Shown: positions 23,530 to 41,803, counted from the first letter of the stretch. The stretch: 64,000 nt of DNA from a virus (IMGVR_UViG_2645727545_000002:72329-136328); one strand, 5' to 3'. The notes: generated by a model from the letters alone, not told the origin. Made by a program: numbers and translations.

Positions 23530-24652
23530 ATTACTATTTTAACTTGTAAATTAGGAAACGAAATCATCAATTGTTATGATGGAACACATGATAAGGAGCA
23601 GCTAAAAAAGTGGGCAGAAAAGAAAATTCTACTTTGTACTGTTTGCAATAAACCATACGAATACTGTCATGGTAAAATCAAAACACCATATTTTAGACAT
23701 ATGGAAAAGATGTCGTGTGATTATCAATATAATGAACCTGAAACCGAAGAGCATTTAAAAGGAAAACGAGATCTATTTGAATGGATTAAAAAACAGCCAA
23801 AACGTTAAAAATGCAGTTTTGGAAGGTTGGATACCAGAAACAAAACAACGACCAGACATTATGTTTGAATATAAAAATAAGCAATATGTAATTGAATATC
23901 AATGTTCTCCTATTGCAACAGAATATACAGAAAGACACGAATTATATAAAGCTGTAGGTATACATGACATATGGATTTGTGGAACACAGAAATATCTACA
24001 ACAAAATATGAGAAAGAAATTTTTAGAAAATGTAGCATATGCTTTTTATTCATCTGAAAATCAGATTGTTTTCCCAATAGAACATAATCATTTATTTGGG
24101 AGAACTTGTTTGATAAAAAATGAATTGAGAGTAAATCATAATTATTTTTATGGTCTTTCGCTGGGCGAATTTTCATTTGATTATGAAATATTTAATAAAA
24201 AGTTTGGAAAACCTAATGAAGTTATTAAAAAAATGGAATATAGAAAAAATATAAGAAAAAATGCTTCATTTAAAAAAGAACAAGATTATTATTTATTTTT
24301 ACAAAACAAAAAACTAAACCGGGATTTAGATACTAAGTTATATCAATTATCTAATAACAACTGGAAGTTCTATATAATGACAAATTATAGTAAGTATAAA
24401 TCTTTTGAATATATACTTGCAGAACCAGTGGTGTCGTATAACATACATAAATATGATTTCCATACAAAATTCAGAAATAAGAAATACAAGAAAATTATGA
24501 TTAGTAAAATGGATTATAGTGAATACAAAAGATGTTGTCGTGATATTGAATATTTGAAGCGAATATTATATGAAATGATGATAGAAAACAAAAGACAGTT
24601 AATGAAATATACAAGTGAAAATATTAGATTTTTGGAGGTATTGGATAATTGA
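23530..24652 (+). CDS. CoiA-like nuclease (frameshift near 23795)
   Basis: CTVC...PYFRH, ETEEHLKGK, RPDI...IEYQCS. Confidence 0.8.
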
Positions 24653-27600
24653 GTAAACATTTAACATCACAAAGATACGTTTTTAAAATACATTCTTCTC
24701 GTCTTAGAAGAGCAAAATGGGATTTGCAGCTATCAATAAAACAAGCACGAGAAAACAAGGAATTAATCGCATTAAGCGAAAGTCAAATGATGAGATTTAT
24801 AGATGAATTGAATGGAATAACAAATCCTGAATTACATATTTCAGATATAAAATCTAAAATTAAAAATTTGAAATATGAAAAGAATTTATCTGTATCAAGA
24901 CCAAAAATTAAAAAACTGTATGAAGAATTAGATACTTATCAATTTAAAAAAGATTATGTATGTGTTGTTATAGATAATAATAAAGACTATTACAAAATGT
25001 ACAAACACGGTTTTAAAAATAAATAAAATTACATACAGACGATTACTTGGAACTACTGGTGGAGTTAAAAATAATACAATTGTTTTTGTAAACGAAAAAT
25101 TATTACCAGAATTAAAAAGAAGAATTGACAATGGAAGAGATAAAACTAAAGAGTTTCTCCGGCAAAATTAGAAGCATATAACGCATTAGTCTGCAGTTCT
25201 TCTACTCCTGTTTCATATCCAAATGGTGTTGTTGTTGTACATGACTGCATTACACACTTCAAATCTGACATTATCGAGTTAGACGATACAAATCTTGAAG
25301 AACCAAGCATGAAATATATTAAAAATAAAGAAATGGAATTAAATGACAGTGATGGGTATGGATTAGCAATGCCGCAGCTCATGAAAAGATGGGGAGAAGA
25401 AATTGGAGAAGATTTTTTGTTGCCTGGATGCGTGATAAGAAATTCATTTTGTAAAGGGGCAGTTTTTCCTATCGATTTTCAAAAATTCGCCAGTGATAAT
25501 AATATAGATTCGATAACTGATGTTTGGGGGGATACTCATAATATAAATGATATAGAGCTAATACTGACAGAATCAATGTTAAAATTGTGGGACTCGTATT
25601 CATCCATTGAAGATTATTTAGAAAACTGCGAAAAAAATCATTATAGCTTTTCTATTACAAAGAATTCCGAAAAAGAATTAGAAAATATTAGAACAATGAA
25701 CTATCAGTTTCTCCAAAGTTATGATTTTAATGAGGAAGAAATCGATGAGCTTATTGAACCCACTGTTTCAGAAATATGTGATATTTTGTCAGATGATTAT
25801 AGGAAAACTATTTTATATACAAAAGGTATTGGATTAAATAGTGATACCGTTCAGAATTTAGACAATTCGTTTTCAACAGCATTGATGATTGAGCCGGAAA
25901 TGAAAAATGATCCATTTATCAAATCACAAATTTATTCTATGATTAGAAAACGAATTGATGATGCAAAAGTTGGCGTTTTAAATGTCCCGGCTAATTACTC
26001 TTTGGTTTCCGGAGACCCTTACTCATTATGTCAATCTATGTTTGGATTGAAGGTCACAGGATTGTTAAAGTCCGGAGAAATTTATTCGAAATACTGGATT
26101 GATAAAGGGGTAGACCAGATTGTAAGTTTTAGAGCGCCAATGACCTCTCATAATAATATTAGAAAACTAAATGTGGTTCATAACGAAAAGATGGACGAGT
26201 TCTATAAATATATGACAACGCCAACAATATTCAATAGTTGGGATACATGTGCAGATGCTATGAACGGCTTCGATAAGGATGGCGACTGTGTAATCAATAC
26301 TTCTCTCCCGCTGCTTGTTAAAAAAACACAAGAATTACCAGCGGTGGTATGTGTGCAGCGGAAAGCACCAAAATGTATTCCCACAGAAGACGATATCATG
26401 AAGTCTAACATCAATAGTTTTGGAAATGCAGTTGGTGCCGTTACAAATAAAATTACATCCATGTTTGAAGTTCAAGCAAATTTCCCAAAAGATAGTCGTG
26501 AATATAGAATTCTAGATTATCGTATTAAATGTGGACAATTATACCAGCAGAACTCGATCGATTAACTTTAGTCGCTTTACACAGCGATGTGTATCGAATA
26601 ACAAGGTGAACTTATAAATATAAGGTGTACATTACACGTATAGGAATTACAGGAAATGGTAATTAGGTAATGTGCTAACTGGAGAAGTCTAAGTATATAA
26701 CAATAAAATATGCGTAAAAAATTTAAAAGAAAGAATGTGATTATATAAGTTTATATAACAATTATGGAATTTATGGAATAAGAAATAAAATCAATAACAA
26801 GATTTATGTTGGAAAAACAGAAATGAATTTTGGCGACAGAAAAGATTGTCATTTTGCAAGTCTTCGTGGTGGATATCATATAAATCCGCATTTGCAAAAA
26901 TCATTCAATAAATACGGAGAAGATAATTTTGAATTTATTGTATTGTATCAATGTAATAACAATGAAGATAGTAATATGGTCAATGAATTAGAGAAAAAAT
27001 ATATCAAGTTATATAAGGACAAAGAACTTGCTTATAATATTGGAGATGGTGGTGACGGTGGACATAATTTAGGAAAGCATTTGTCAGAAGAAACCAAAAG
27101 AAAAATTGGAGACAAAAATAGAATCAACATGACTGGTCGTAAAGCCACTATTGAAACTAAGAAAAAAATGTCAGAAGCTCAAAAAAACGTTTTGATAGAA
27201 TGTCTGATGAAGAACTCAAGGAATATGGGAAACGAATTTCTCAATATGCTTCAGGATATAAATGGTCAGAAGAGTCAAAAGAAAAATTTTCAAAAATTCA
27301 GCAATCTAAACCTAACGGCGCAAAATATGATGTGGAAACAGTAAAAAAGATAAGACATTTGCACGAAGACAAGAATTTGACTTATACAGAAATCGCAAAA
27401 TTATTAAATATGCACAGACATACTGTGTATTTAATCGCTACATATAGAAGATGGAAATACGCATAACCCATCACACTGTTATATATATGATGATCCAGTG
27501 CCAAGCTAAAGCAGCAATGCTTTAGAAGGTCAAACGAGCAAGACATACAATCTCTACGAGATTATGAAGTCTGTATGATTAAGGTGGAACTCCTTGATCA

Positions 27601-28542
27601 GAAGTGCCTTGCCCTCATTTTAAATGAGGTGATGATGTGCTCTACTCCCTAATAAATATCGGGAAACCGAGGGTATTAAGGAAAACTAAAGGGATTGAGT
27701 CAAAACCTATGCCGAGCGAGTGGTATAATTGGATTGCAAATAAAATTTCAAACGGAAAGAGTTCTTCTGAGAAGAAGAAATACTGGATGAATAGAAAACT
27801 TGTTGCGGATAAAAAACCGTATTTTATGCAATACATTTATCCTGCAGAAAAAACAAAGATGTTAGAGTATATTAAGCGTAATAATGAAAAATGTATTATG
27901 AAGTTTAGAATCACACTTGATGAGCTTTTAGAAAAAGAAACTTTGACACTTGATGAGGAGAAGTTTATACAATGTTATTACAAAAGAATGCCTTTAGGAA
28001 TGTCTCCTTGTACTATTAACAAAATATGTTGGGCTATTGAAAACAAATTTTCTGATTTAAAATACGTCAATGATTCTGATTTTGACTACTCTATTATGAA
28101 ATGCAATGTTGTCTATTCTAAGCAGTTGTTTAATAAAATTAAAAAGATTTATGAAAGTTATAAAAAAGAACTTTCAAACTATATGCAGTTTGCAAAATCT
28201 GAAAGAATAAAATCAGACGAAAGACAGATTCAAAAATATACATTAAAAGAAGATTTTAAACGGCGGTGCTTAGAACAGTGCCCCAATGAAGAATATTTAT
28301 GCGATATTGTTTTAGATCTATGTTATTCAAAAAGTAAATCTAGCAAGCAATTTGCATGGGATATATGTGGAGATATGATTATCTCAAATCTTCTTAAAAG
28401 GAATAATTACAAGGTTACTTATCCAACGCAAGACATAAATGGCGATATTGATTTTGCAGGGAAAAAGTTTTCACTAGAAACAACAGAAATTAAATTTGAT
28501 ATGGGTATTAAAGACGAGGAGGACGATGAATGGTTGTACTAA
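24649..28542 (+). CDS. yonO: YonO-like single-subunit (RdRP-related) DNA-dependent RNA polymerase; exons 24649-26562 and 27682-28542
   Basis: SDGYG, FRAP and catalytic GFDKDGD motifs; splicing restores NSID|KTKGI; two small frameshifts near 25015 and 25150. Confidence 0.85.
26563..27681 (+). ncRNA. Group I intron in the RNA polymerase gene
   Basis: P1 CGAU/GUCG with U.G at the 5' splice site; P7 GAGCA/UGCUC; terminal G at 27681; P10 CUUUAGU/ACUAAAG. Confidence 0.9.
26740..27466 (+). CDS. Intron-encoded GIY-YIG homing endonuclease with NUMOD3 and HTH (start approximate; frameshift ~27185)
   Basis: GIYGIRNKINNKIYVGKT; LGKHLSEETKRKIG. Confidence 0.85.
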
Positions 28543-29290
28543 ATGAGACAAAAGAAGCAGAAAGACTTATTTCTGAAGGGGAGGTTGGCAACAAGCCAAC
28601 TTCTACCCTATTTCTATTATCTAGGTATTATAGACAAAAAGTAAATTTAAATAAACAAGACACTATTTGTAAATTAAATGATTTTATGGGCAAACATTAT
28701 AAAAATTATAATGCTGCTTTATGGGAAGATGTTATTGAAAATACTGTAAATAAAGCACACAAATATCCATTGAGAGAAATAGAATGTATTGAAATATTTC
28801 AATCTGAATTAGACACAATTTCAAGAGTTAACACTACGAAATATAGAAAGCTTTTATTTGTAATGTTATGTTTCGCGAATTATACAACACATTATCTGAA
28901 ACAAATAATGGATGGATTAATACGGATATAAAAGAAATATATAAAATTTCTAGAGTACATGTAAAACATAGGAATGATAAATTTTTATATTTGAACGATT
29001 TGGAACAATTGGGACTAATCTCTTTTTCAAATAAAAATGACAACCTGAATCTAAAAGTAAATTTTGTTAATAAAACTGGTGAAACTGCTTTAAAAATAAC
29101 CGATTTTCGTGAATTAGGATATGAGTATTTAAATTTTGTTGGGGAAGGAAAATTTGAAAGGTGTAAACGATGCGGGAAATTATTCAAAAAGAATAGCAAC
29201 AATATGAACTATTGTAATGACTGTCAAAAAGAAATTACAAAAGAAAAAACAAGAATTAGAGTGAAAAAGTATAGAGAAAACAACATGTAA
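28530..29290 (+). CDS. Hypothetical protein with C-terminal zinc finger, coupled to the RNA polymerase gene (frameshift ~28875)
   Basis: Overlaps the polymerase stop; CKRCGK...YCNDC. Confidence 0.65.
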
Positions 29291-29369
29291 CGATTCAGAA
29301 AACCCTTGAAACCCTTGTAAACACTGGGTTTCTGGGCATCATGCCCGTTTTTCTTTATATGTAGATAAT

Positions 29370-29976
29370 ATAAGCACTTGCTTATAAATACAAATAACTC
29401 AGTGCAGATTGGCTTGTCACCATGCTGAGAATATATGAATAGTGAGTTACGGTATAATGCGATAGTTTTATACTGCAGCTTCTGGAATGATGTGAATCAT
29501 AAACAGAAAGACGGAAACTGTCAAAACTAAATATATGTACAATAATATATTGCCGTAAAACGCAATTGCCAGATCGCTGACATAATAGACGACTCCAGTG
29601 GAGTAATAATCGTGATGCCTGTATCGGTGGAATGTTACAGAGAGATAAGTAGCGAAAATCCAAATAAGTCAGTTGCGTCGTTGATCGGAAGAAATTCCAG
29701 TATAAGATCTGTCGAATGTACGAGTAGCCCAAAGTGACGTGAGATTAATACATAAAGAACAAAAAAATTAAATCTTATTATGAATTTTCTTAATACGCTG
29801 AATGACATGGGTGAAAGTTTCTCGTAATCAGTCGAGGCTACAATTGCTGTTTATCAGATGTAAAGGAAGTCTAAGGGTAGCTCCTTATTCTCAGCCTTTA
29901 CAAGTAGTGGCGGAATATTATGACGATATATTTGAGTAGGAAGAAGTTCCATTTGTATTTATAATCAAGTGCTTAT
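29370..29976 (+). ncRNA. ROOL-like large non-coding RNA (~607 nt)
   Basis: 25/26-bp closing helix 29370-29395 with 29951-29976; internal hairpins; adjacent to tRNAs; size and context match ROOL. Confidence 0.7.
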
Positions 29977-30065
29977 GCGCGCACTTGACGATTTCTAATC
30001 TCCTTTTCAGTTAGTAATAGCATTGCTGTTCTGGTAGTGCTGTTGCTAACATCTTAGGAGTATTT

Positions 30066-30139
30066 TAGCCCCATCGCCAAGCGGTAAGGCACAGGACTTT
30101 GACTCCTGCATTCAGTAGTTCGAATCTACTTGGGGCTGC
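30066..30139 (+). tRNA. tRNA-Gln(TTG)
   Basis: Cloverleaf, CAGGA-CTTTGAC-TCCTG anticodon arm, GTTCGAAT. Confidence 0.9.
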
Positions 30140-30322
30140 TATCATCCGAAGTGTTGCGCTGACCGTCAATCAGTGGCGCATAAAAACCTATCCCAGTATA
30201 AATCCAGGTGACACTGGCTTATATGAAGATACGCTCTAGGTTTACTACGTTTTATATAACTATTCACATAACAATTATTTTGTCGTCCTTGTGGATGGGT
30301 GTTTTGGACGAGCAAACAATAA

Positions 30323-30413
30323 GCTGCATTAATCCTCTGTGGTAAGGGGTCGATCTTGAAAAATCGATAGTAGCCGCTTATGCGGTGTCTAAGTTCAAAT
30401 CTTAGGTGCAGCG
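30323..30413 (+). tRNA. tRNA-Ser(TGA)
   Basis: GCTGCA/TGCAGC acceptor, long variable arm, GTTCAAAT; anticodon loop has one extra A. Confidence 0.75.
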
Positions 30414-30418
30414 TTATA

Positions 30419-30493
30419 TGCAGGCGAGTGGAACGGATTACTACGTCAGACCCATAATCTGAAAATACTGGGTTCGACTCCCAGGCTCTGCAA
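30419..30493 (+). tRNA. tRNA-Met/Ile2(CAT), atypical
   Basis: TCAGA-CCCATAA-TCTGA arm, GGTTCGACTCC; bulged acceptor stem. Confidence 0.7.
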
Positions 30494-30784
30494 TACTCTC
30501 CCACTGTGGAGAAATATACAACGAAAGGAATGTTTTATCATAGTTCTTATTACAGACAAAGAATGTAAATTTTGTTAAGCAAAGGATGGAAATGGAGAGA
30601 TCATATTCATCGCACTGTATCCGGAGCAAACAAAAATATGCAACAGAAAATTATCGATTGATGCAAGATTTAGAAAATTTTAGATCACAGTCGATTAAAG
30701 AAACAACACATACAAAGAAACATACAAACAGAAAACGTAAAAATAACTAGAATTAAAACTAGAAGGAAAGGTGGTTTTTTACAA

Positions 30785-32217
30785 TCGCCAAGAAGAAAAA
30801 AGATTTTATTAAAATTTCTTTTATAGACTCCCCATCATCAGAAGATGTAACAGGAAGTCTCATTTACATTTCTACACCAAATCATAAATTCCTCGTTGAT
30901 GCCGGGCTTTATCAAACAAATGATAGATATGAGGATTTCTTGGTAAACAATCGCAAATATAAAGAATTCAAACCAAAAGAATTGGATTATGTATTTATCA
31001 CTCATAATCATGGAGATCATTGTTTGTTGCTTCCTAAATTGTTTAAAGATGGATGCAAAGCAAATGTAATTATTGCAGATGGCTCTGCAGAAGTTTTAAA
31101 AGATATGGCTGAAGATTGTGCAGAAATAAACGAACGCGATGTAATAATTATCAATAATCAGCACGATAAGCATTATGAATCTTTATATGATCTAACGATG
31201 TTCATAATATGATAAACCATACTGTAGAATTCCCAATGGAAGAAAAATTAAAATTGATGATGAATTATCATTTGAATTAATTCCAAGTGGTCATTTACTT
31301 GGAAGCTGTCAAGTGATGTTATATCTTACAGTTAACAATGTAACTAAAACAGTTTTAATAACTGGAGATATAGGAAATAAAATTGTTGGAAATCGATTTG
31401 TTGGAGAATACAAGCAAGTCAAAAATGCTGATTATGTTATTGCAGAATCTACTTATGGAGATAAACCAGATATTAAAACTGGTCGAAAAGAAAAGAAAAA
31501 ACGATTTAGAAAAGTTTAAATCAATTATTGATACACAGATTCATGATTTAAAAGGTCGTGTGATTATACCAAGTTTTGCACAGTCTCGCAGTGCTCAACT
31601 TGTGCTTATGGTTTATCAATTATATAAAGATAGTGATTGGAAACCGAAAGTGTACATCGATTCACCATTAGCAATTAAATTGTTTAAGGATTATGAAAAC
31701 TGTCTGGATGGAAAAGATAAAGAAGACTTCGATGAAATGCTGCATAGTGGAATGTTTCATTTTGTAAAAGAACCTGTGGATAGCAAAACACTTGTAGCAA
31801 GCAATGAACCATGTCTGATAATCTCAACGAGTGGTATGTGTCAAGTCGGTCGCATTCGCCACCATTTAAAAAAATGTGTAATTGATCCAAATGCAACTGT
31901 TCTGTTTGTAGGATTTAGTACAGATGGAAGTTTAGCTTCTTTACTTAAAGATAATAAACGAAAAACAATTACAATTGATCAAAAAGAATATCCTTGTAGA
32001 TGTGCATCGTATTCATTGAAATCTATGAGCGGACATGCTCCGTTCAATCAACTTGTTGAGAATTATACAGAAATAAATAGTCAGAAAATAATTCTACATC
32101 ACGGTTCAAAAAAGGCAAAAGAAATTTTAAAACAAAACTTTAGAAAAAGAATATGAAAAGAAATGTAAATCAACTCGTGTTGTAATTGCAAATTCGAGTC
32201 TAAAAATTACGATATAA
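30785..32217 (+). CDS. Metallo-beta-lactamase / beta-CASP ribonuclease (several frameshifts; start approximate)
   Basis: HNHGDH, SGHLLGS, TGD, ESTYG, PSFA and SGH motifs. Confidence 0.85.
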
Positions 32218-32234: not shown

Positions 32235-32419
32235 ATGAACGATAATAGAAGATTTGATAAAGAATACTCAACTCAATATACTCCAGAAATGAAGTATCTT
32301 CTATCAAAGGGGATTAAGTATTCTTTTGTAAAAGACGTTTATGGAGTAACAACATATAAGTATAAAAAGACATCAGAGTTATTTAAAGCACTGATGTCTT
32401 TTATATGGAGAATAAGTAG
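32235..32419 (+). CDS. Small DUF5659-like protein
   Basis: YLLSKGIKYSFVK...TYKYKKTSEL; similar to 55439-55630. Confidence 0.6.
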
Positions 32420-32452
32420 ACATGCGAAAGGATAGACAATAGGTGATAATAA

Positions 32453-33573
32453 ATGATATATAAAGAAATTGTAAATGTAAAGATATGTCATCAGAATTAT
32501 AAACATTATGAAAACAAGGGGTATTTTGTAAATAGGATATACGACATTAAAAATAGACCAAGTGTTCCAGAACAATATATAGATGTGAATTGGGAAGATA
32601 TCCCACATAGTAGTAAAGAAAAGATATTATTAAAATGTGATATTTGTGGAAAGATATTTGAAAGAAAAATTTTAGATTATTATCATTCGCATAAAAGCAA
32701 TGATATAGATACTTGTTGTAAAAAATGCCAATATATAAAATCTAATAAAACAAAAATAGAAAAATATGGGACTACTAATCCGGCTGAAATTGCAAAACAA
32801 ATAAATGGAACATAGGTCGTTCATTAAAATATGGAAGACAAGATATTGAAGACATGTGTAAAAATAAGGATTATAAAATATTTAAAAAAAATAATGATGT
32901 GCGATATACCGTAAAATCAAAAATTAAATTATTTTGCACAATACATAACTGCGAGTTCGAAACTTCTGTCGAATGTTTAATGAATAAAAATAGAACGAAT
33001 TGCCCTATGTGCAATGGTGAAAAAATTTCTAAAAGACAGTCTAAATCTACGATTGAAGAAGTAAAGAAAATATGTGACGAAAAAGGTTATACTCTATTAA
33101 CTGATCATATTAGTAATTGCGATGATAGAATAGAATATATTTGTAACAAACATAAAGATTATGGAGCTCAAAAAACTTCTTTATATGGATTAAGGAAGTA
33201 CTCCAATAATTGCAGAATGTGTAGAATTCCTAAAAATGAAAACCATTGGCATTGGAATGGAGGAATTTCTTCTGATCGAGACAGAATAAAAAATACTCCT
33301 CAGTATAAAAAATGGATTAAAGATGTGTTTGAAAGAGATGATTATACTTGTCAATGCTGTGGAAAAAAGGGGACTTATCTTGAAGCGCACCATTTGTATA
33401 ATTTTTCAGAGTATCCAGAATTAAGAATGGACGTAGACAATGGCATAACATTATGTCATGAATGTCATTCGATATCTGTCCCAACAAGCTTTCATGGTGT
33501 ATATACACAATTTCATAATACTCCAGAACAACTATTTGAATACATAGAAAATTATAAAAATGAAAAAATGTAG
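32453..33573 (+). CDS. Free-standing HNH endonuclease with zinc-finger repeats (frameshift ~32812)
   Basis: RDDYTCQCCG...LEAHH...NGITLCHECH. Confidence 0.9.
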
Positions 33574-33650
33574 TTAAAATAAATAGAAAATAAAATTGTA
33601 ATTTTTAGGAAGATGAATATTATAGATTAGACTTATTGCAGGTAACGCAT

Positions 33651-33911
33651 ATGAAAAAAAATAAAACATTATTATCATATATATTAGGTGCATGTACAAT
33701 CGTAATATTTCTTCCAATTGTAGAAGAAATAGTTAATGTAATTCTGTCTTGGATTGAATATCTGAAAATTCTTCCGGGAAAACTTGTTATAAAAGGCAAT
33801 GCAGAATTACAAGAGTTGCAGTCGGATTTTGAGGTTGAATCGACAGATACATGCGCTATCGGGTTTCATTATGAACCAGAAACTGAAGAATATTATGACG
33901 AGGAAGAGTAG
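33651..33911 (+). CDS. Small membrane protein
   Basis: N-terminal hydrophobic helix, acidic tail. Confidence 0.6.
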   Translation: MKKNKTLLSYILGACTIVIFLPIVEEIVNVILSWIEYLKILPGKLVIKGNAELQELQSDFEVESTDTCAIGFHYEPETEEYYDEEE

Positions 33912-34029
33912 TCTAATACTGCTCTTCTATTTTTATTGAAACAGAACCCAACACACCTCTCAACGATGCGAACCACGTTGAGTAGTTCACATTTAATCGA
34001 AAATATAGATAATGAAAGGATTAATTGAT

Positions 34030-38181: not shown

Positions 38182-38970
38182 ATGAACGAATTAAAAATTT
38201 TTGAGAATGAAGAATTTGGACAAGTAAGAACAATTTTGATTAACAACGAACCGTGGTTTGTTGGAAAAGATGTTGCATCAGCATTAGGATATTCAAATAC
38301 GAGAGATGCTCTTGCTACACATGTAATGAAAGAAGACAAGAATACCGTCGTGATTTCCGACGGAAAAAGAGGAAACCCAAATCAAGTTGTAATTAACGAA
38401 TCTGGTCTTTACGCTTTAATCTTTGGAAGCAAATTGGAATCAGCAAAATGTTTTAAACATTGGGTGACATCTGAAGTATTACCATCTATTAGAAAAACTG
38501 GTGGATACGTAGACAATGATGAATTATTTATAAATACATATTTACCATTTGCTGACGATGCTACGAAAATGTTGTTTTCGTCAACATTGGAAACTGTCAG
38601 AAAACAAAATGATTTAATTAAAAAACAAAATGATGAAATACTACATCAAAAAGAAGTTATAACAGGTCTTACAGACGATGTTGATATTTATAAAAAACGT
38701 TCAATTATAAATAGAATTTGTAAACGAAGACAAGGTAATTATGCAAATAGATATAAGGAATTATATAAATGTTTTAGAGAAAGTTATCATGTTGACTTAG
38801 AAGCAAGATGTGAAGGTTTTAACTTAAGACAGAATAAAAAGAAAGATAAACTCACAACAATTGCGTATGCGGAACAATTCGGATTTATTGATGATTTATT
38901 TGAATGTTGTGCGAAATTATATGAGACAGAAGTAAAAGAAGTTTTAAATCAAATGATTGAAGCTCAGTAA
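38182..38970 (+). CDS. BRO-N domain (antirepressor-like) protein
   Basis: FENEEFGQVR...PWFVGKDVA...INESGLY...WVTSEVLPSIRKTG. Confidence 0.9.
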   Translation: MNELKIFENEEFGQVRTILINNEPWFVGKDVASALGYSNTRDALATHVMKEDKNTVVISDGKRGNPNQVVINESGLYALIFGSKLESAKCFKHWVTSEVLPSIRKTGGYVDNDELFINTYLPFADDATKMLFSSTLETVRKQNDLIKKQNDEILHQKEVITGLTDDVDIYKKRSIINRICKRRQGNYANRYKELYKCFRESYHVDLEARCEGFNLRQNKKKDKLTTIAYAEQFGFIDDLFECCAKLYETEVKEVLNQMIEAQ

Positions 38971-39063
38971 ATATATATATGGTTTGTCAGTTTGACAAGT
39001 AAAGAGAATTGTAAACTAATCGTTCGTCTCTACCATAAAAATATCCAATAAACATTAAAGGAA

Positions 39064-40109
39064 GTGATTAAAATAGCACGAAGTACAGTTTATAATCAGA
39101 TTACTTCTTCTGAAAAATTAGAACAAGTAAACCCTGAAAATAAAGAATTAGGAGAAGATTGGTTAGAGTATTTGGAATCTATTGATCGCTCTCCTCAAAG
39201 CATTGTTGCGTATAGAAGTGACCTAAATATATTTTGGGTATGGAATTTACAATACAATAAAAATAAATTCTTTGCTGATTTAACAAAACGTGAAGTTGCA
39301 AAATTCCAGAATCATGCATTAAATACATGGGGCTGGAGTCCAAACAGAATCCGTAGAGTTAAATCATGTCTGTCATCTTTGTCAAATTACATTGAAAATG
39401 TTTTAGATGATGAAGAAGAATTTGAAAATTATAGAGGGATTATAAGAAAAATTGAAAACCCAGCTAAAGAAGTTGTTAGAGAAAAAACTATTTTATCTGA
39501 TGAACAAGTGGATTTCTTGTTGCAGGAATTAGTGAACAGAAAAGAATTCGAAAAAGCTTGCGCCGTTGCAATAGCAGCTTACTCTGGAATGCGAAAAGGT
39601 GAGTTGTTACAGATGAAAGTAGAATTCTTTAATGATGACCATTTTGTATATGATTCCATGTGGAAAACTGATAAAGTCAGGGCAAAAGGGTTCGGGAAAT
39701 TAGGACATCAATTAAATAAATTTGTATTATATGGAGCAAAACCTTATATAGATTCATGGTTAGAGTATAGAAAAGAAAATGGAATTGAATCTGAATGGAT
39801 GTTTGTATCATCTTATAGAGACGAAAACAATAATAAATGTTATAGGAAAAGAAAAAACTTGAGTGAATGGACATATGAATTTAGCGAAATTTTAAACGAA
39901 GATTTCTATTTTCATAGCCTGAGACATTTCACATGCACCAAACTACATCGCTTAAACTTGCCCTCACACGTTATTCAAGAATTTTTTGGTTGGCAAAGCG
40001 CAGAGATGTTAAAATCTACAATGATCTTACTGCTGAAGACGAATTTAGCAAATATTTTGATAAAGATGGAATTAAAGAGGTGACACAGGGTTATTTGTCT
40101 GATGTTTAA
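39064..40109 (+). CDS. Tyrosine recombinase (frameshift ~40010)
   Basis: YSGMRKGE, HSLRH, FFGW; catalytic Tyr in the shifted frame (IYNDL). Confidence 0.9.
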
Positions 40110-40548: not shown

Positions 40549-40582
40549 TGGAGAGCTGTGCTGCTCTCCTATTTTTGTATTT

Positions 40583-40654
40583 GGCTCCATGGTCAAGAGG
40601 CTAAGACATCGCCCCTTCACGGAGGTAACACTGGTTCAATTCCAGTTGGAGTCA
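40583..40654 (+). tRNA. tRNA-Glu(TTC)
   Basis: GGCTCCA/TGGAGTC acceptor, CC-TTC-AC loop, GGTTCAATTCC. Confidence 0.8.
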
Positions 40655-40731
40655 TTATTATATTCCGGCTTTCAAAAGAAATGCCGGTTTCATATCGGCA
40701 GAAAATAGAAAAAAGAAAGCGAGGGAAAATA

Positions 40732-41649: not shown

Positions 41650-41692
41650 ATATGTATAAAACAGGACGGCGCTACTGCCGTCCTATTATTAT

Positions 41693-41762
41693 GCTTGGAT
41701 AGTTTAATGGAAAAACGATTGACTTGTAATCAATTGTTCCCAGTTCAAATCTGGTCTGAGCT
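41693..41762 (+). tRNA. tRNA-Thr(TGT)
   Basis: ATTGA-CTTGTAA-TCAAT arm, GTTCAAAT. Confidence 0.7.
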
Positions 41763-41803
41763 TTTATTGATATATAAATTAGTTGAGAAAGAAGGGATAA
41801 ATT

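Follow-up and report, generated by a model that had tools for sequence, protein, structure and literature searches.

The locus described here raises the question of what a large structured RNA does beside a group of tRNAs and a gene for a beta-CASP ribonuclease (RNase), and whether these neighbours form one functional unit. It lies in a stretch of 64,000 nucleotides (the window) that makes up the last 64 kb of a 136-kb IMG/VR phage contig (IMGVR_UViG_2645727545_000002:72329-136328). A reading made from the sequence only had proposed a ROOL-like RNA of 607 nt at 29370-29976, closed by a 26-bp helix, which together with three tRNAs and the RNase was thought to form an RNA-processing unit transcribed after the polymerase gene. 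Atomic structures have been solved for ROOL and for GOLLD, another large phage RNA, and to our knowledge neither has a known function. The reading that we hold with good confidence is that the window contains a ROOL gene in an RNA island that is a site of exchange, that the RNA is abundant, discrete and most likely processed by way of a stalk, and that the beta-CASP RNase is not its specific partner.

A ROOL RNA and its transcript

The ROOL family was described by Weinberg et al. 2017 (PMC5737381). Its members are ornate RNAs of ~580 nt that assemble by themselves, without protein, into hexameric or octameric hollow cages (PMC12286853, review PMC12990946). We scanned the full window with the covariance models of Rfam 15 and found a ROOL match (RF03087) on the plus strand at 29374-29969, with 321.5 bits against a gathering score of 99.1 (E 3.5e-73). 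The alignment spans model positions 1-574 of 574 and is not truncated. The 136-kb contig contains this single ROOL, and a covariance-model search for GOLLD (RF02032) gave no match in the window or in the full contig. The model gives the RNA a length of 596 nt, and the full closing helix extends it to 607 nt, the family size being near 580 nt. The model search that had been named as a check on the ROOL assignment was thus positive over the full model length, and together with a discrete transcript from a near-identical copy it bears out the term ROOL-like RNA.

In an alignment of 21 ROOLs (that of the window and 20 others) RNAalifold predicted 73 pairs, and compensatory changes were seen in 62 of them. 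Taken with the full-length match, these covarying pairs identify the window RNA as a regular member of the ROOL family. The helices of the model are formed by the window RNA with few non-canonical pairs. All three internal stems that the sequence-only reading had picked out fall on paired positions of the RF03087 model, namely CTCAG/CTGAG (29398-29402/29425-29429), GACGGAAACTGTC (29511-29523) and ACTCCAGTGGAGT (29592-29604). The element is a further member of a known family, in informative surroundings.

Between the conserved halves of the RNA lies an A-rich variable linker (29735-29805, plus strand). It aligns to an unpaired, poorly conserved stretch of the model (posterior ~0.5) with a 17-nt insertion, and could not be aligned among the 21 ROOLs. 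In the solved cages the equivalent linker is disordered and directed into the cage interior (PMC12286853), and by analogy the linker of the window would face the interior too. Towards the 3' end a conserved hairpin, AAGGG-UAGCU-C(C)CUU (29873-29886, plus strand), has a loop that includes the self-complementary AGCU; the UAGCU loop was found in 14 of the 21 ROOLs, that of the window included. ROOL half-shells are joined by a conserved symmetric kissing loop, L18 (bridge B6, PMC12286853), for which this hairpin is a candidate. By likeness to the solved ROOLs (PMC12286853, PMC12990946) the window RNA may be expected to form a protein-free cage.

Two single C are missing from the window copy, one after 29882 in this hairpin and one after 29894, in comparison to three close relatives and to all RNA sequencing (RNA-seq) runs compared, and the gaps in the RF03087 alignment coincide exactly with the two sites. 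A blastn search of the ROOL sequence against 50,697 GenBank phage records gave no match.

Parts of 29300-30800 were contained in 13 RNA runs, and four runs were compared over 28800-31300. In an expressing cultured strain, represented by the stranded raw-read run X21 (isolate transcriptome), ROOL stood ~100x above the flanking RNA. The plus-strand depth was 0.5 over 29304-29387, rose to 728 over 29388-29471 and to ~1740-1870 (~1850 taken together) over 29472-29723, and then fell to 492 (29808-29891), 128 (29892-29975) and 4.5 (29976-30059). It was 7-20 in the tRNA region and 0 beyond 30732, i.e. before the downstream protein gene. The well-covered part, at 29398-29943 on the plus strand, is the body of the abundant RNA, with both arms of the closing helix outside it. 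In the opposite orientation the depth was 35-75x lower, which shows that the signal is RNA and not contaminating DNA. A second study of the same organism gave a similar picture, with a mean depth of 878 over ROOL and 14 downstream of it on contig X5. The ROOL of the cultured strain differs from that of the window by three substitutions and two one-base C insertions. The discrete transcript looked for by the sequence-only reading was found as plus-strand RNA of this sister element. ROOL would then be made in the phage as a discrete, very abundant plus-strand RNA.

The element was absent from the raw-read run X22, where host tRNA-Gln reads alone mapped. Contig X5 begins at its 5' end with 30 nt of foreign sequence, which we considered as a circular junction; the sequence matches nothing in the window, and the idea was rejected.

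Closing helix and RNA ends

The closing helix is built from two arms of 26 nt, 25/26 complementary and 555 nt apart, which form an inverted repeat on the plus strand: the 5' arm at 29370-29395, comprising P1 and an outward extension, and the 3' arm at 29951-29976. We shuffled 29300-30060 60 times with dinucleotides preserved; the longest distant inverted repeat (at most one mismatch) then had a mean length of 10.8 nt and a maximum of 13 nt, against 26 nt observed. The proposed 26-bp helix with one mismatch is thus confirmed in place and lies far above the shuffles. The outer part of the 3' arm (29965-29972) can alternatively pair with 29981-29988.

We surveyed 25 ROOL loci for closing helices, allowing at most one mismatch as well as G-U pairs. 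Helices of 21-35 bp, reaching 5-15 nt past the ends of the Rfam model, were present in 20 of the 25. Their sequences differ widely between loci, and five closing-helix pairs of the alignment fold show compensatory changes; such long helices of varied sequence indicate selection for RNA pairing. Of the four loci in which a tRNA abuts ROOL within 60 nt, three had short helices (10-17 bp), which hints, on a small sample, that the ends of ROOL can be defined either by tRNA punctuation or by a long stem.

Both arms had hardly any RNA-seq coverage. Fragment ends in run X21 cluster just inside the arms, at 29398 and 29407 (5') and at 29914 and 29943 (3'); the mapping method does not separate primary from processed ends. 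In L. salivarius, ROOL was found to be 520 nt long by circular RACE (rapid amplification of cDNA ends) and a reporter assay put the promoter 225-450 nt upstream (PMC5643018), which implies that a longer precursor is processed there. Fragment ends inside the arms, taken with the L. salivarius promoter (PMC5643018), suggest that the present ROOL is cut from a precursor as well, and this bears on the choice of a physiological construct for structural work. The closing helix is most likely a processing stalk, by analogy with the stalks of ribosomal RNA (rRNA) precursors that are discussed below. It would be carried by a rare precursor and then removed or trimmed by host enzymes, and the trimming would leave a mature ROOL of ~510-550 nt.

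A terminator-like hairpin with a T-run lies at 29333-29357 on the plus strand, 12 nt upstream of the ROOL helix. The transcriptome contig of run X1 skips 29332-29366, and the relatives L003 and L004 carry a different hairpin in place of this one. Just upstream of ROOL, between the hairpin and the RNA, no sigma-70-like promoter scoring at least 9/12 was found. The 5' arm itself contains a candidate promoter (TATAAA at 29383-29388, with weak -35 boxes) scoring 8/12. As a side observation, the 5' arms in L149, L150, L155, L156, L165 and L167-L169 contain the motif CTTTGA(A/C/T)A or CCTTGAAAA, which resembles the boxA leader signal of Firmicute rRNA operons. No clear copy of the motif was seen in the 5' arm of the window.

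RNA island and neighbouring RNase

The relation of ROOL to the RNase was examined from both sides. On the RNase side we compared 32 viral contigs with an orthologue (66-96% identity). ROOL was present in four of them, the four closest relatives, and absent from 28; among eight near-complete records it was found in none. On the ROOL side, a motif scan of the viral collection with covariance-model confirmation provided 24 further ROOL records. A Beta-Casp domain was detected in none of these 24, and the same search detected it in 5/5 control records. The sequence-only reading had named co-occurrence of the RNA and the RNase across phages as a check on the unit, and with 4/32 and 0/24 the result went against it. 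By these counts the RNase goes with the tRNA island of a single phage lineage and has no such tie to ROOL. A tRNA was found within ~0.8 kb upstream of the RNase gene in 27 of the 32 RNase loci, usually ~240 nt before the gene, and the identity of this tRNA varied (Met, Ser, Lys, Asn, Pro, Ile, Phe or Glu). The proposed unit of ROOL, tRNAs and RNase is accordingly not supported as a dedicated one (ROOL being absent in 28/32 and Beta-Casp present in 0/24), and what persists of it is the adjacency of a tRNA island and an RNase-type gene. In run X21 the depth just before the downstream enzyme gene was 0-2, in comparison to ~1850 over ROOL, and the accumulation of ROOL there can therefore not need much of a phage enzyme. 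The beta-CASP RNase would be a phage-backbone gene next to the tRNA island, with an enzyme that acts on RNA without being specific for ROOL; its likeliest targets would be phage tRNA precursors or host RNA. For annotation this means that the neighbouring RNase should not be recorded as a ROOL partner.

The slot after the island is not always filled by the same enzyme. In the relative L164 the ROOL-tRNA module of the window (29367-30776, 97.8% identity) is followed by a gene for a PIN_4 and PhoH (PhoH2-like) protein of 415 aa (L164:953-2200, minus strand of that contig) instead of the beta-CASP gene at 30771-32217 of the window. The two genes have the same ribosome-binding site, and L164 rejoins the window sequence further on with a 100% match to 33634-33935. 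The cultured expressing strains carry the PIN-PhoH version of the module. PhoH was found above the cut-off in none of the 27 beta-CASP records searched, and beta-CASP and PhoH never occurred together among the 51 phage records examined. In the other ROOL records PhoH was present in 9 of 24, and in six of the 24 it lay on the same strand, 1.2-1.6 kb downstream of ROOL. It looks as if one predicted RNA-processing enzyme displaces another in place, and of the arguments left for tying the island functionally to an RNase, this replacement is the strongest. The PhoH adjacency may stem from shared ancestry, as ClpP-like genes and large upstream open reading frames (ORFs) recur in these loci. In a literature search we found no paper naming PhoH together with ROOL or GOLLD.

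The island occupies the position between a YonO-like RNA polymerase gene and the RNase gene, and its RNA content varies. Among the 32 RNase relatives, four had ROOL, nine had GOLLD and none had both. Five of the nine GOLLD calls were above the gathering score and four were at 75-105 bits (E at most 1e-20), with coordinates converted by hand. Every ROOL or GOLLD copy is followed downstream by the final tRNA, a small ORF and the RNase gene. The flanking genes common to the loci encode the polymerase-like protein, the RNase and a 393-aa protein, with a ClpP-like gene in some. The island would thus be a swap site that holds ROOL in the close relatives, and elsewhere GOLLD, different tRNAs or an uncatalogued RNA closed by a stem.

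This last element, of ~500 nt with a closing stem of ~40 bp, was found in the same island in L011, L014, L015 and L017, which have neither ROOL nor GOLLD, and in L008. It is placed at L015:4247-4749 and, beside GOLLD, at L008:2582-3085; L171, L174, L177 and L178 bring the total to nine viral contigs. Its fold is far better than that of shuffled sequences (z = -7.9). Neither the element nor the gaps in relatives lacking both ROOL and GOLLD matched an Rfam family, with E allowed up to 1. Nearly every stem change is compatible with G-U pairing and few are truly compensatory, so that the element, which may be a large phage RNA missing from the catalogues, counts as a lead rather than a finding.

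Several points weigh against the reading of an abundant, stalk-processed ROOL in an exchange site. The RNA-seq data come from a near-identical copy in a cultured strain, with flanks that diverge beyond 29367 and 30757. The dip in coverage over the arms could be technical, since a 26-bp duplex blocks priming and reverse transcription, and transcription could start at ~29396 from the weak promoter within the 5' arm. The sampled phages are related, and the tallies are not counts of independent events. One unrelated phage, G067 (locus L157), has both ROOL and GOLLD on the same strand 4 kb apart, in a dense tRNA array (G067:C1:21328-21999 and 26039-26550), and the two RNAs are for this reason not strictly interchangeable.

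Other readings of the element itself were also considered. On the minus strand a 116-aa ORF does exist at 29382-29732, and the stretch might on that account be protein-coding instead of an RNA gene. We regard this as practically out of the question, given plus-strand transcription of more than 35:1 and an RNA covariance match over the whole length with compensatory pair changes. The 26-bp inverted repeat might instead work at the level of DNA, serving a mobile ROOL-tRNA cassette as its terminal inverted repeats or as sites of crossover. Homology to L003, L004, L161, L164 and the cultured-strain copies begins three bases ahead of the repeat (29367), a 7-2-7 near-palindrome makes up the outer 16 nt of each arm, and the RNA island is a mosaic, all of which would fit such a cassette. 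The downstream break in homology, however, is at 30757-30776, away from the 3' arm, and no transposase or recombinase adjoins the repeat. The helix is moreover included in the Rfam ROOL model, and long helices of quite different sequence are kept in 20 of 25 ROOL loci, with compensatory changes in five pairs, and we find a role in DNA highly improbable.

The model of the sequence-only reading, in which ROOL, tRNAs and RNase are one dedicated co-transcribed unit and the phage RNase cuts ROOL and the tRNAs from a precursor, has more in its favour. All the elements are adjacent and on the same strand, the enzyme is of an RNA-acting type and a tRNA precedes its gene within ~0.8 kb in 27/32 loci. 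The replacement of beta-CASP by an unrelated predicted RNase, PIN-PhoH, in L164 and the expressing strains (with never both in 51 records) also agrees with the model, as does the PhoH gene 1.2-1.6 kb downstream of ROOL on the same strand in 6 of the 24 other ROOL phages. However, 28 of the 32 RNase phages have no ROOL and none of the 24 other ROOL phages has beta-CASP, ROOL is abundant while the RNA before the enzyme gene is at depth 0-2, and the PhoH adjacency may reflect shared ancestry. In our judgement the dedicated unit is an improbable explanation. A broader proposal would be a dedicated RNA island in which cage RNAs (ROOL, GOLLD and the ~500-nt RNA) are modular cargo exchanged by recombination. 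A long closing stem, a flanking tRNA or a ribozyme would serve to release each of them, and the adjacent beta-CASP or PIN-PhoH enzyme would mature the island RNAs or control the release of phage tRNAs possibly held in them. We offer this as a tentative idea with a small chance of being right as a whole.

For the preferred reading, that of a ROOL gene in a swap site with an RNase that is no specific partner, the locus offers practical openings. Syntenic phages that differ mainly by ROOL or GOLLD in one island are a natural swap experiment. The exchange supports the published guess that the two cages have related jobs, with the caveat that one phage carries both. The current published idea of such a job is that the cage would package or sequester tRNA-sized or ribosome-sized cargo. 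As public RNA-seq data show that cultured bacteria strongly express a near-identical ROOL, genetics and end-mapping are feasible without a search for the host.

Neighbouring genes and comparison with known systems

The beta-CASP RNase gene (30771-32217, plus strand) is of the CPSF73/TTHA0252 type and is broken into three frames in the contig, with an intact form of 481 aa in L002-L005. It had been placed 0.3 kb further on, and it does start 0.28 kb past the last tRNA, with a GTG at 30771. Lactamase_B, Beta-Casp and RMMBL were matched in Pfam. The best solved relatives are TTHA0252 (E 5e-33, ~430 residues aligned), archaeal CPSF, CPSF73 and IntS11. When the intact orthologue from L005 was aligned to TTHA0252, the motifs HNHGDH, GH, GD, AESTYGD, RHH and SGHA were kept, so that HxHxDH, beta-CASP motifs A and B and the RNA-type His of motif C are all present. 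Judged by these motifs, the neighbouring enzyme is a real RNA-acting RNase of the predicted CPSF73/TTHA0252 type. With tblastn against the 50,697 GenBank phage records only uncultured human-gut phages were found, at no more than 34% identity, and no cultured phage model thus emerged. When one genome of each prokaryotic species was searched for the RNase, the sole match was unrelated, at 22%.

In comparison to the intact, 95-96%-identical proteins of four relatives the RNase gene has five one-base indels, all in runs of A or T: a surplus T at 30775-30780, a lost A after 31193 and another after 31242, and a surplus A at 31491 and again at 32134. Removal of the extra T puts the GTG start at 30771 in frame behind a good ribosome-binding site, which explains why no start was visible. 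A recoded genetic code was considered for the broken frame and the missing start, and was rejected in favour of the one-base homopolymer indels seen against intact relatives. Indels in homopolymers occur about every 250-300 nt in the RNase gene (30775-32134), in a 253-aa gene upstream of ROOL (28530-29290) and in ROOL itself (29882, 29894), and they are probably assembly errors. Since similar errors run across the contig and the relatives are intact, the RNase gene is treated as functional in the real phage. Gene calls on this contig are fragmented and should not be taken for pseudogenes.

Downstream of the RNase gene, an insertion at 32255-33633 (plus strand) is absent from the four closest relatives and contains a 120-aa ORF and an HNH endonuclease gene (32854-33573). 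The homologous sequence in L024 is a single 388-aa ORF.

Between ROOL and the RNase gene, all on the plus strand, the island has the following features. An 18-bp hairpin lies at 30010-30050 (RNA depth 4.5), and the fold of 29951-30066 has a z-score of -6.7. A tRNA-Gln (UUG) at 30067-30139, 98 nt downstream of ROOL, was called by both ARAGORN and Infernal (61.8 bits). The spacer of 180 nt that follows (30140-30320), between tRNA-Gln and a Ser-like element, is kept even in the otherwise divergent L152; it has a terminator-like hairpin at its end (30283-30298) and a fold z-score of -1.3 only. A type II cloverleaf resembling tRNA-Ser(UGA) occupies 30322-30413 (z = -4.5); its variable arm is long and its anticodon loop, CUUGAAAA, has 8 nt. 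L005 and L164 contain the same sequence, and the copy in L003 differs by three changes. The 8-nt loop is the reason why neither ARAGORN nor Infernal calls the element. Possible interpretations are a tRNA mimic, a tRNA of the frameshift-suppressor kind or a sequencing error common to these contigs. A weak tRNA with anticodon CAU (Met or Ile2) follows at 30420-30492, with 33.2 bits in Infernal against a cut-off of 29 and no call by ARAGORN. Of the three tRNAs that had been proposed, tRNA-Gln(UUG) is therefore solid, the CAU tRNA is weak and the third was called by neither program. A tRNA-Asn stands in place of the Ser-like element and the weak tRNA(CAU) in L002 and L152. A small ORF of 54 aa (30586-30750) precedes the RNase gene, and most relatives have an ORF of 50-100 aa at this position. 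Of the 25 ROOL loci, 22 had tRNAs on the same strand within 3 kb. Further downstream in the window there are two more tRNAs, Glu(UUC) at 40582-40655 and Thr(UGU) at 41691-41764, and a region (38182-40083) with a Bro-N domain gene and a tyrosine integrase or recombinase gene (39064-40083).

Upstream of the island lies the putative YonO-like single-subunit RNA polymerase gene (24649-28542, plus strand, ~900 aa). It is split by a 1.1-kb insertion (26562-27681) with a GIY-YIG/NUMOD3 homing endonuclease (ORF 26823-27344), which is absent in L005, L014 and L025. The insertion is probably a group I intron; no intron RNA model matched it at the gathering score. The pieces of the gene are 96-100% identical to an uninterrupted 916-aa ORF in L005. 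This 916-aa protein had no Pfam match of its own and no sequence relative in the PDB, and the family is assigned by way of a homologue. The polymerase-like protein of the window is ~20-25% identical to its positional homologue L010:426-3194, and the latter matches the Pfam RdRP family PF05183 (two-barrel, E 2.3e-12), the family of SPbeta YonO. On this basis 24649-28542 may encode a YonO-like polymerase. The claim that the RNA is transcribed after the polymerase gene fits the gene order and is reasonable in view of the L010 homologue, with the identity of the polymerase coming from this distant relative. Between polymerase and ROOL, the gene of unknown function for a 253-aa protein (phrog_30716) appears at 28530-29290 (plus strand) as two overlapping ORFs produced by a one-base frameshift, and it is intact in L005:3159-3920. 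Further upstream are a UvrD-type helicase and a CoiA-like nuclease. The best explanation of the source is a large uncultured gut phage of the SPbeta/YonO type.

Each part of the locus can be set beside a known system. YonO of Bacillus phage SPbeta is a single-subunit two-barrel RNA polymerase, as Forrest et al. reportedly found in 2017. The window gene resembles it in its size of ~900 aa, it lies directly upstream, and its positional homologue matches the RdRP/two-barrel family; it differs in that the window copy is without a Pfam or PDB match and is linked through a low-identity homologue. In comparison to TTHA0252, archaeal aCPSF/FttA, CPSF73 and IntS11, the phage protein keeps all the metal-binding and beta-CASP motifs, whereas it is phage-encoded, ~481 aa long and without KH or other extra domains.

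In bacterial rRNA operons, long-range helices between leader and spacer form processing stalks that are cut by RNase III. The ROOL helix is similar in that a long helix joins the two flanks of a structured RNA with high expression, and the ends of the abundant species fall just within this helix. It differs in that cutting by RNase III is established for the rRNA stalks, the ROOL stalk being a proposal, and in that the solved ROOL structures include the inner helix part (P1) in the folded RNA.

GOLLD (RF02032) is like ROOL a large phage RNA that occurs beside tRNAs and forms RNA-only cages, but it is unrelated in sequence and fold. At ~510-550 nt, the probable mature RNA seen here is close in size to the L. 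salivarius ROOL, which was mapped at 520 nt (PMC5643018). With known ROOLs the present element shares the helices, the place of the variable linker, a phage setting beside tRNAs and a very abundant discrete RNA. The RNA itself shows no departure from the family, and what it adds is contextual: the YonO-like polymerase/RNase slot, the exchange with GOLLD and reads indicating that the long closing helix is scarce in the abundant species.

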